The notes beneath the pieces are model-generated. The model worked only from the letters and a program-made list of their open reading frames with translations. It did no database searches and was not told the DNA's origin. From IMG/VR virus record IMGVR_UViG_2698536355_000008: a stretch of 7,297 nt of DNA. One strand, given 5' to 3'. The position numbers and the translations under genes are program-made. Of this stretch, positions 3,384-7,297 are shown piece by piece. Origin of the DNA: a virus (lineage: Duplodnaviria; Heunggongvirae; Uroviricota; Caudoviricetes). How positions within the stretch are numbered: the stretch's first letter is position 1; every line of letters starts with the position of its first letter.

Positions 3384-3599
3384 ATGTCAAATAAAATGAC
3401 TGGTTTAGTAAAATGGTTTAACGCTGATAAAGGTTTCGGCTTTATTTCTCCTGTTGATGGTAGTAAAGATGTGTTTGTGCATTTTTCTGCGATTCAGAAT
3501 GATAATTATCGAACCTTATTTGAAGGTCAAAAGGTTACCTTCTCTATAGAGAGTGGTGCTAAAGGTCCTGCAGCAGCAAATGTCATCATTACTGATTAA
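3384..3599 (+). CDS. cspB: Major cold-shock protein CspB
   Basis: 71-aa product [38 protein letters not shown]... carries the RNP1-like (KGFGFI) and RNP2-like (VFVHF) motifs. Shine-Dalgarno TAAGGAA precedes the ATG at 3384. Confidence 0.9.
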
Positions 3600-3962: not shown

Positions 3963-4133
3963 TCAGGCTACAGCTTTAAGATTTGTCTGGAATACTTTGT
4001 TGCAATGAGGGCAGATCAAAAGGGCACCTTTTTGTACTCTTGAAAAACTGTGTTCTGACTCTTGGGTGCAGTTTGGGCAGGAACATTTAACGAGATAATT
4101 ACGGCGTGATTTTGAGTTTTTACGTTCTGACAT
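3963..4133 (-). CDS. ynfU: Small zinc-ribbon protein (YnfU-like, 56 aa)
   Basis: Taking the internal Met of the 73-aa track ORF gives MSERKNSKSRRNYLVKCSCPNCTQESEHSFSRVQKGALLICPHCNKVFQTNLKAVA. It has two Cys pairs (CxCxxC and CxxC) and a basic N-terminus. The 56-aa length and location match my recollection of Qin YnfU. Confidence 0.6.
   Translation of the reverse strand: MSERKNSKSRRNYLVKCSCPNCTQESEHSFSRVQKGALLICPHCNKVFQTNLKAVA

Positions 4134-4880: not shown

Positions 4881-4884
<4 letters not shown>
4573..4884 (+). CDS. ydfR: DUF1327-family protein of unknown function (YdfR-like), inserted between holin and endolysin
   Basis: 103-aa ORF. Its ATG at 4573 is 4 nt after the essQ stop, and its stop overlaps the rrrQ start (ATGA at 4881-4884). 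Position and length match Qin YdfR from memory. Confidence 0.7.
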
Positions 4885-5908
<1,024 letters not shown>

Positions 5909-6270: not shown

Positions 6271-6483
6271 ATGTCTAACAAAATGACTGGTTTAGTGAAA
6301 TGGTTTAACCCTGAAAAAGGTTTTGGTTTCATCACGCCGAAAGATGGCAGCAAAGATGTGTTTGTCCATTTCTCAGCAATTCAGAGCAACGATTTCAAAA
6401 CATTAACTGAGAATCAGGAAGTTGAATTTGGTATTGAGAACGGACCTAAAGGTCCTGCCGCTGTTCATGTAGTGGCGCTTTGA
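6271..6483 (+). CDS. cspI: Cold-shock protein CspI
   Basis: 70-aa product [38 protein letters not shown]... with the cold-shock-domain RNP motifs. Its position after the spanin genes matches Qin. Confidence 0.9.
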
Positions 6484-6571
6484 GGTAGACAATATTACAA
6501 ACCATATTCACTTTAGATGCCCGTGTTGTCATGGTTCCCAGTATAGAACATCATCTTTTGATGTTTCTGAC

Positions 6572-6682
6572 ATGAATCCTTTCGGGGCAAAATGTATCTT
6601 TTGTAAATCAATGATGATTACATTTGATAATATTTCACAATACTTAAATGCCAGCCGTCTGTCGTTGGATTTAAAAAAGTGA
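6572..6682 (+). CDS. Small zinc-ribbon-like ORF downstream of cspI; 36 aa from the only ATG, but the Cys motif extends upstream (see findings)
   Basis: The frame is open from 6479 to the TGA at 6680-6682 and encodes ...RCPCCHGSQYRTSSFDVSDMNPFGAKCIFCKSMM.... The only in-frame ATG (6572) lies after the first Cys cluster. An intrinsic terminator follows 6 nt after the stop. Confidence 0.3.
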   Translation: MNPFGAKCIFCKSMMITFDNISQYLNASRLSLDLKK

Positions 6683-6687
6683 AAATG

Positions 6688-6711
6688 AAGGCTCCTTCGG
6701 GAGCTTTTTTG
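6688..6711 (+). terminator. Intrinsic terminator ending the cspI transcription unit
   Basis: Stem GGCTCC (6690-6695), loop TTCG, stem GGAGCT (6700-6705), then TTTTTT (6705-6710). Confidence 0.65.
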
Positions 6712-6829
6712 CTTGGTGTCTATTCGATGGATACTCACATACTACGGTAACATCATGAAAAAAATCATAGTTTTTTTTAACTCTGAACCAGCAGTGGTAG
6801 TGCCAGCGATGACTGGAGTTAACACCATC

Positions 6830-6985
6830 ATGCGTGAATATCCAAATGGCGAAAAAACACACCTTACTGTAATGGCCGCAGGGTTTCCATCTCTGACCGG
6901 AGATCATAAAGTCATTTATGTAGCCGCGGATCGACATGTTACTTCAGAAGAAATTCTGGAAGCAGCAATAAGGCTCTTGAGTTGA
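6830..6985 (+). CDS. ynfN: Small hypothetical protein (YnfN-like, 51 aa; an in-frame upstream ATG at 6755 would give 76 aa)
   Basis: MREYPNGEKTHLTVMAAGFPSLTGDHKVIYVAADRHVTSEEILEAAIRLLS, with GGAG at 6815-6818 upstream of the ATG at 6830. The 51-aa length and position after cspI match Qin ynfN from memory. The protein sequence itself is not verified. Confidence 0.45.
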   Translation: MREYPNGEKTHLTVMAAGFPSLTGDHKVIYVAADRHVTSEEILEAAIRLLS

Positions 6986-7153: not shown

Positions 7154-7175
7154 ATGATGAATATTGAAAACTTAA
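7154..7175 (+). pseudogene. gnsB: 5' fragment of a gnsB-like gene truncated by an IS5 insertion
   Basis: AAAGAGGA Shine-Dalgarno (7144-7151) followed by ATG ATG AAT ATT GAA AAC TTA (M-M-N-I-E-N-L). This resembles the GnsA/GnsB N-terminus MNIEELKK as I recall it. The frame runs straight into the IS5 terminal repeat at 7176 and stops after 7 IS-encoded codons. Confidence 0.4.
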
Positions 7176-7297
7176 GGAAGGTGCGAACAAGTTCCTGATA
7201 TGAGATCATCATATTCATCCGGAGCGCATCCCAGAGGGACATCATGAGCCATCAACTCACCTTCGCCGATAGTGAATTCAGCACTAAGCGCCGTCAG
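7176..7297 (+). mobile_element. IS5-family insertion sequence, left end (partial; continues beyond the window)
   Basis: Terminal inverted repeat GGAAGGTGCGAACAAG at 7176-7191, immediately preceded by TTAA (7172-7175), which fits the IS5 YTAR target. The transposase N-terminus follows. Confidence 0.85.
7244..7297 (+). CDS. insH: IS5 transposase (InsH-like), N-terminal 18 codons, truncated by the window edge
   Basis: ATG at 7244 encodes MSHQLTFADSEFSTKRRQ, matching the IS5 transposase N-terminus from memory. Confidence 0.85.
   Translation, partial: MSHQLTFADSEFSTKRRQ

Follow-up and report, generated by a model that had tools for sequence, protein, structure and literature searches.

Comparative evidence for an AUU start codon in the Qin prophage gene ynfQ, behind a cold-shock protein gene whose stop codon lies within the Shine-Dalgarno sequence

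Papers of 2016-2017 count infC and pcnB as the only confirmed AUU starts in Escherichia coli (PMC5499595, 10.1101/063800), and initiation at this codon has been placed at about 6-8-fold (PMC3592434) or at 50-100-fold (10.1101/063800) below that at AUG. In the case of infC the AUU lies 3 nt past the thrS stop codon, and about half of the translation of a reporter was found to come from reinitiation (PMC3592434). The gene with which we are concerned here, ynfQ, features in published work as a cold-shock-induced gene of the Qin prophage (PMC11228462, PMC11551758, PMC13348028) and is listed among the uncharacterized Qin genes (PMC11551758). In VanOrsdel 2018 (PMC6001520) the name 'ynfQ' denotes another ORF, of 37 aa, and the name has moved since then. 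The closest described relative of its product is YmcF, encoded by E. coli ymcF downstream of cspG, which is 62 aa long like YnfQ and belongs to the same Pfam family, PF23641.

The window, by which we mean the whole 7,297-nt stretch of DNA that was analysed, comes from an E. coli lambdoid prophage of the Qin type and covers the end that bears its lysis and cold-shock genes, and K-12 annotation maps onto it as locus coordinate + 4899. Mapped in this way, rrrQ falls at 4881-5414, rzpQ at 5411-5908 and rzoQ at 5586-5858, and gnsB starts from about 7177, where it is cut by an IS5-like element. On the plus strand the cold-shock protein gene cspI, the first cistron of the unit discussed below, occupies 6271-6483 (ORF and mapped RefSeq annotation). 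The reading frame behind it, at 6494-6682, is ynfQ (b4724; YP_009518790.1 / WP_071524604.1), a gene of the E. coli Qin prophage that spans 1638256-1638444 (189 nt) in the K-12 reference NC_000913.3 and begins 10 nt past cspI. Further along the same strand are ynfR (6685-6750; RefSeq annotation), a 21-aa ORF whose first codons are those of a terminator hairpin, and the 76-aa form of ynfN (6755-6985; ORF and annotation), which matched phrog_3425 over its full length. A 56-aa gene of the ynfU family (NF038384) is annotated on the minus strand at 3966-4133.

Several independent resources already hold this gene. The PGAP pipeline calls the same CDS at window 6494-6682, with the same ATT as its start, in thousands of E. 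coli genomes, naming it ynfQ or ymcF and describing it as 'cold-shock protein' or 'cold shock small protein YmcF', and the record of phage Tritos likewise has this 62-aa CDS annotated, with the same ATT start. Residues 1-62 of YnfQ align with positions 1-62 of the 62-position Pfam profile PF23641 ("YmcF-like") at 109.9 bits (E 6.9e-32), against a gathering cutoff of 27 bits. Every invariant column of the family core HFRCPxCxGSQYR...NPxGAKCIFCK is present in the window protein, the frame translation of which contains ITNHIHFRCPCCHGSQYRTSSFDVSDMNPFGAKCIFCKS. A preliminary description of this DNA had presented the frame as an unannotated gene that would be new; with ynfQ in the K-12 reference, RefSeq, PGAP, Pfam and the papers cited above, it is an already known gene and its value as a gene discovery is nil. 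The same description had also taken it for a real gene, and here the conservation across 80 loci and the full-length PF23641 match bear it out. An open frame of ~70 codons is by itself unremarkable at 35-40% GC, and the window holds many spurious ORFs of that size; it is by conservation, not by length, that this frame stands above chance.

A search of 5.8 billion proteins recovered 131 homologues, mostly of 62 aa and named YmcF, from genera that include Escherichia, Citrobacter, Salmonella, Klebsiella, Raoultella, Kosakonia, Yokenella, Leclercia and Enterobacter. The family is narrow, since an exhaustive HMM search of 1.84 billion representatives yielded just 42 clusters at 50% identity, and its distant relatives gave no functional lead. 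The NCBIfam model NF047912 (ECs_2282 putative zinc-binding protein) scored YnfQ below its curated cutoff (17.8 bits versus 37, E 0.0023), and no family matching YnfQ was found in PHROGs or PADLOC. The ynfQ ORF is absent from the annotation in five of nine phage records; because the start codon is rare, gene callers miss or shorten ynfQ and ymcF.

The explanation of the locus that we hold, as a whole, to be very probable is that ynfQ is a real gene that starts at the AUU at 6494, encodes 62 aa, is transcribed together with cspI and has a weak start that would be coupled to csp translation. Its central element, the start codon, was addressed by comparing 80 genomic loci, out of 277 matches, from about 15 enterobacterial genera, and by a codon-level comparison of 74 distinct sequences. 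Across the 80 loci the codon aligned to 6494 is ATT in 60, ATC in 4 (Salmonella and Siccibacter) and ATG in 16 (Klebsiella, Raoultella, Silvania and C. sedlakii), and nothing else. The preliminary description had proposed looking for orthologues with an AUG at the equivalent position, and these four lineages have one at exactly the aligned codon. Throughout the 74 distinct sequences the third base of the start codon is T, C or G and never A. The same sequences are essentially invariant at the first and second positions of codons 5-20 and free at the third positions, as illustrated by H6 (CAT or CAC), R8 (six Arg codons) and P10 (three codons). The ten codon positions 5' of the start contain stops and have no periodicity, except for an invariant AGG, the core of the Shine-Dalgarno sequence, which is found in 74/74 distinct sequences. 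In the Kosakonia loci the frame is closed by a stop 12 nt upstream, and no canonical start follows it ahead of CPCC, which confines the start to a span of four codons. A second in-frame ATT, at codon 5, cannot be the start of the family because this codon is CTC in E. coli ymcF.

Within the window, a GAGGT at 6482-6486 overlaps the cspI stop and is separated by 7 nt (6487-6493) from the ATT at 6494-6496. Further along come the first Cys codon (6518), the first in-frame ATG (6572) and the stop codon, TGA (6680-6682); all of these positions agree with the coordinates first given. Also in agreement, the stretch from the preceding in-frame stop to the first Cys codon holds no ATG, GTG or TTG (locus L003, identical to the window in this region), but the frame opens at 6473, behind a TAG at 6470-6472, and not at 6479 as had been stated. 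The annotation, position 1 of the PF23641 profile and the 80-locus alignment all point to the plus-strand ATT at 6494-6496 as the initiation codon, and thereby to the 62-aa product from AUU that had been favoured from the outset. By this comparative evidence, the AUU at 6494 is where translation of ynfQ starts, and its Shine-Dalgarno sequence is a GAGGU that takes in the cspI stop codon (TGA 6481-6483, inside TGAGGT 6481-6486, plus strand). The literature searched yielded neither a primary source for the ATT annotation nor an experimental mapping of initiation at the ynfQ AUU. An Onc112/retapamulin paper, a tetracycline start-site paper, an Enterobacteriaceae microproteome paper and one supplement name neither ynfQ nor its start.

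At 10 nt the gap between cspI and ynfQ is too short for a promoter; ynfQ therefore has none of its own and is transcribed with cspI, from the cold-shock-induced cspI promoter. This gap and the conserved terminator behind ynfQ support the co-transcription that was proposed earlier. The intrinsic terminator (6688-6711, plus strand; identified by folding and conservation) comprises a stem at 6688-6707 (-14.9 kcal/mol, z = -2.8) with a UUCG loop and six T, the T-run reaching 6710. A simple consensus terminator scan reported this hairpin on the minus strand only. The hairpin and T-run are thus as originally described, and it is only the spacing that needs correction, as the hairpin begins 5 nt, not 6, past the stop. 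A hairpin with a T-run is found directly 3' of the stop in 47 of 74 distinct loci with stems that differ in sequence, for instance GGCTCC/GGAGCC, GGCCCC/GGGGCC and CAGGTCAG/CTGACCTG, and because the stems differ while the hairpin and T-run persist, the terminator is conserved as a feature. Transcription in part reads through it into ynfR and ynfN. The YnfR ORF starts inside the hairpin, yet the tagged protein YnfR-SPA has been observed, with induction by cold shock (PMC6001520), and ynfN tracks cspI and ynfQ in expression tables, where the three are co-induced or co-repressed (PMC11228462, PMC11728337); both observations argue that termination is incomplete. The ynfR ORF is conserved in Qin-type loci only.

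We then considered the relationship between the start codon and the upstream csp gene. An intact csp lies directly upstream in 51 of the 80 loci. In every one of these the csp stop codon (TAA or TGA) furnishes the first three bases of the Shine-Dalgarno sequence T(A/G)AGG, 9-10 nt of variable sequence separate the csp stop from the start, and the start codon reads ATT in 47 loci and ATC in the other 4, with no ATG among them. An intact coupled csp is missing in all 16 ATG loci: just ahead of the ATG, Klebsiella and Raoultella have what is left of a csp pseudogene, interrupted by stops; csp is frameshifted in C. sedlakii; and the Silvania loci showed no trace of csp upstream. Thirteen loci without an intact coupled csp retain ATT (Pseudescherichia, Atlantibacter, L073 and L077). 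A naive Fisher test of the association between csp and the start codon gives p 2.5e-9, a value that overstates it because on the neighbour-joining tree ATG arose independently only about 3 times and coupling changed about 5 times. This csp-stop/Shine-Dalgarno/AUU-AUC arrangement, and its loss alongside csp, is not described in the literature that we searched.

The pattern suggests that the weak AUU start depends on translational coupling to csp, and a gating of the ynfQ start by csp translation is plausible. In such a mechanism AUU or AUC would be a deliberately weak, IF3-discriminated start that would become usable through ribosomes finishing csp 9-10 nt before it; the output of YnfQ would thereby be tied to Csp translation and held below Csp levels. 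Weaker IF3 discrimination at low temperature may contribute, and AUG would replace the weak start once the supply of csp-derived ribosomes was lost. On temperature, the published data are that IF3 discriminates less strongly against AUU when it is cold and that, contrary to the idea of relief by cold, AUU mRNAs are more cold-sensitive than AUG mRNAs in vitro (PMC5499595). The full form of the proposal is that the csp stop within the Shine-Dalgarno sequence, the 9-10 nt gap and the AUU/AUC codon together make a translational gate, through which YmcF and YnfQ are produced only under heavy csp translation combined with relaxed IF3 discrimination in the cold; we regard this as rather unlikely. If true, it would constitute the second natural IF3-sensed AUU system after infC, and the dependence on coupling would explain the switch to AUG in lineages that lost csp. 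A hairpin in the window pairs the cspI stop and Shine-Dalgarno sequence with codons 5-9 (z = -2.0). A conserved RNA structure that hides the Shine-Dalgarno sequence or the AUU was considered and rejected, as RNAalifold on 17 diverse coupled loci returned only a 4-bp invariant stem within the CPCC codons and no covariation. With no conserved structure that occludes the Shine-Dalgarno sequence or the start, coupling by unwinding is unsupported.

The most serious competitor holds that AUU is simply a weak start for low expression, used de novo from its own Shine-Dalgarno sequence with no dependence on csp, IF3 or temperature, and we consider it possible, if somewhat doubtful. The lack of a conserved occluding structure agrees with it, as do the small number of independent ATG origins, the retention of ATT without an upstream csp in Pseudescherichia and others, and the AGG core, found unchanged and correctly spaced in every locus, the csp-less ones included. 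However, it gives no account of why AUU or AUC accompanies the intact csp in 51/51 loci and ATG in none, or of why ATG is found only where csp is decayed, frameshifted or absent. It likewise leaves aside the third base that is never A, the same AUU/AUC choice as in infC (PMC5499595). Nor does it address a gap held rigidly at 9-10 nt despite a variable spacer, or a csp stop that always falls within the Shine-Dalgarno sequence.

Production of the protein as a CspI-YnfQ fusion, by a +1 frameshift at the end of cspI like that of prfB, is very improbable in our view. CUU-UGA is the shift site of prfB; a CUU UGA occurs at 6478-6483, and ynfQ lies in the +1 frame relative to cspI, in a frame open from 6473. 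Nevertheless, CTT-TGA is present in only 7 of the 51 coupled loci; elsewhere csp ends in CTC, CGC, CGT or GTA, in many cases followed by TAA. Moreover, csp and ymcF share the same frame in 7 loci, there is no Shine-Dalgarno-like stimulator 3 nt upstream of the CUU, where the sequence is GUAGUGGCG, and csp-less lineages make the protein from ATG. The comparison of loci indicates that recoding is not the mechanism of the YmcF family.

Even less credible is a 36-aa peptide that starts at the internal ATG (codon 27, 6572-6574, plus strand) and carries the second Cys pair only, which the preliminary description had listed as an alternative. The ATG and the open 36-aa frame are certainly there, and the database entries P0142, P0145 and P0146 are shortened to about this position. 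But codon 27 is hypervariable (K36/R12/A7/S7/Q5/G3 in the 74 distinct sequences), being R in the closest E. coli allele, P0001, and the 26 codons ahead of it, with the invariant C9 and C12, are under strong purifying selection, so that the alignment contradicts a conserved start here. The shortened entries, like the 70-71-aa Citrobacter entries that are N-extended and have an 'I' at the start position, are the product of gene callers unable to use ATT. The other listed alternative, a decaying pseudogene with a lost start codon, fits a frame without a canonical start in a cryptic prophage but is equally hard to credit, being contradicted by a frame of 57-64 codons with no stop or frameshift in its core in 80/80 loci, by variation of a kind typical of coding sequence, by the retention of this ATT both in ymcF, the paralogue on the chromosome, and throughout about 15 genera, and by the intact ynfQ of inducible Escherichia phages.

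The 62-aa protein encoded at 6494-6682 (plus strand; 62 aa plus stop) is a small protein of the YmcF family, as PF23641 and the 131 homologues indicate, and a predicted zinc ribbon. Its first Cys knuckle, C9-P-C11-C12, is encoded at 6518-6529 and its second, C34-I-F-C37, at 6593-6604, both on the plus strand, and C9, C12, C34 and C37 are invariant in 74/74 distinct sequences. C11, in contrast, is not fixed: 3 loci have H, R or Y in its place, and the distant members generally have K/T/S/A/H/Q/N/R there (giving CPKC, CPTC, CPSC and the like) and differ at H13 as well. Two Cys knuckles had been recognized from the start, but the 'C-x-C-C' signature assigned to the first is really CxxC (C9, C12) with an extra, dispensable Cys11. 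The metal ligands of the first knuckle are thus likely to be C9 and C12, and this conservation identifies the predicted site as a classical four-Cys, two-knuckle one. The top AlphaFold2 model, computed from 31 sequences and of only moderate confidence (mean pLDDT 73.8, with 83-89 over residues 11-40; 50-55 in the other four models), surrounds each knuckle with short strands and has a C-terminal helix (residues 44-57); YnfQ is probably a zinc ribbon followed by such a helix.

Fold searches with YnfQ gave zinc ribbons as top matches, namely the TFIIE-alpha zinc finger (1vd4), ribosomal eL43 and the zinc fingers of PolD and MCM, none of them significant, and a profile search of PDB sequences likewise returned nothing significant. 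One database source labels the homologue P0006 as 'TFIIE alpha finger'. A Rieske [2Fe-2S] site was entertained on account of a marginal match of CPCCHGSQY to the box II motif CPCHGS (E 0.04-1), and was rejected as there is no box I and both C11 and H13 vary in distant members. Given a conserved basic and aromatic surface (R8, Q16, Y17, R18, K33, K38) and the linkage to csp, our best guess is that YnfQ works beside the Csp RNA chaperone by binding to nucleic acid or to the ribosome.

The interest of the locus lies in the start codon. Both ymcF and ynfQ are annotated as AUU starts, beside the infC and pcnB of the 2016-2017 papers, and the comparative data, in which Klebsiella and Raoultella have ATG at this very codon and the coding signature sets in directly behind it, provide independent support for that annotation. 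The association of AUU or AUC with an intact csp 9-10 nt upstream offers a lead both on how rare start codons are maintained and on how the output of a small protein might be tied to a cold-shock chaperone.

Comparison with known systems places YnfQ as follows. At the level of the protein, the zinc-ribbon modules of the TFIIE-alpha zinc finger, eL43, PolD and MCM have two CxxC knuckles on short beta-hairpins, as predicted for YnfQ. Among Qin proteins, YnfU (NF038384) is another small zinc-binding protein with two CxxC pairs, and its gene likewise adjoins a csp gene, but that gene starts at a canonical ATG and is on the strand opposite to ynfQ; kinship of the two proteins was considered and set aside, there being no detectable sequence similarity between them. 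At the level of the start codon, pcnB shares with ynfQ a rare AUU initiation codon, which limits expression (PMC5499595, 10.1101/063800), and differs in encoding a large enzyme unrelated in sequence to YnfQ. The likeness to infC goes further: it too has a conserved AUU/AUC start just past an upstream stop with GG adjoining (UAA GGU AUU in infC versus UGA GGU AGA CAA U AUU in ynfQ), and it is cold-stress-inducible like ynfQ (PMC5499595, PMC3592434). The proteins are unrelated, however, the gap is 3 nt in infC and 10 nt in ynfQ, and IF3 autoregulation through the AUU is shown for infC only (PMC5499595). The closest parallel by far is ymcF, of which the prophage-borne ynfQ, present in Qin and in inducible lambdoid phages, is the Qin paralogue. 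The chromosomal ymcF (locus L057) has the same ATT start, 10 nt past a csp stop embedded in TAAGG, its product is about 63-66% identical to YnfQ, and the two loci run parallel in gene order, cspG-ymcF-ymcE-gnsA against cspI-ynfQ-ynfR-ynfN-gnsB.

Comparison of the ymcF/ynfQ genomic loci revealed that both the upstream csp gene and the start codon of the small Cys-rich protein vary in other genera. In Klebsiella and Raoultella ymcF starts with ATG and is directly preceded by the remains of a csp gene, a pseudogene with internal stops (loci L029, L033, L046, L061 and related loci, at about 1380-1485); this is a lineage where the rare start gave way to ATG. The Atlantibacter loci (L069-L071) display tandem starts, with the rare ATT immediately followed by a canonical ATG (ATT ATG TTA CAT..., 1501-1506), and here the upstream csp has shrunk to a remnant ORF of 29 aa, its TGA still lying within TGAGGA. 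In Citrobacter sedlakii NBRC 105722 (L012, about 1297-1689) a frameshift near codon 62 takes csp into the ymcF frame, resulting in a single uninterrupted Csp-YmcF reading frame in which an ATG opens the YmcF part; either a genuine fusion or an error of the draft assembly may account for it.

The ynfQ-type gene is unannotated in five of the nine phage GenBank records that carry it (H32-H35 and H37), a blind spot that we attribute to its ATT start. PHROGs has no family for YnfQ; the neighboring ynfN has phrog_3425. The name ynfQ has itself moved between genes, which is a trap when searching the literature: VanOrsdel et al. 2018 applied it to another ORF of 37 aa located between ydfJ and ydfK, which is identical to ynaM (PMC6001520, table). 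The start of the Qin region in PMC11551758, where ynfT is listed first, is 1632890, which is also the coordinate of the 37-aa ORF. Given this shared coordinate and the position of ynfT in the list, that ORF may be the present ynfT.

The terminator hairpin of ynfQ itself codes for the 21-aa YnfR (MKAPSGAFLLGVYSMDTHILR; window 6685-6750, plus strand). YnfR-SPA has been detected and is cold-induced (PMC6001520), implying read-through of the terminator. Similar peptides, with the pattern 'APxGAF', are also present at other loci, where they seem to be incidental products that arise when GGCTCC..GGAGCCTTTTTT is translated.

A second small protein with two CxxC pairs, the 56-aa YnfU (window 3966-4133, minus strand; NF038384 match, 79.4 bits), is encoded between cspB (window 3384-3599) and essQ. 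Sequence comparison of YnfU with YnfQ recovered no similarity; a ynfU homologue also occurs upstream of an Atlantibacter ymcF locus (L070 845-1015, minus strand). At the end of the window (about 7155-7297, plus strand), the start of gnsB (MMNIENLR...) runs for only about 8 codons before the left end of an IS5-like element of the ISKpn26 family interrupts it. Among 5,426 complete E. coli genomes, this exact junction was found in only one, that of strain SCPM-O-B-12142 (NZ_CP144928.1).

Two features of this region recall known systems. The YnfQ motif CPCCHGSQY (window 6518-6538, plus strand) resembles the Rieske box II, CPCHGS, and profile searches recovered marginal matches to b6f Rieske proteins (E 0.04-1); C11 and H13 of this motif are not conserved in distant family members. 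The second is CUU-UGA at the end of cspI (window 6478-6483, plus strand), which is found in only 7 of the 51 loci with an intact csp ending 9-10 nt upstream of ymcF/ynfQ. CUU-UGA is the +1 frameshift site of prfB, and the end of cspI has the identical site, with ynfQ lying in the +1 frame relative to cspI.
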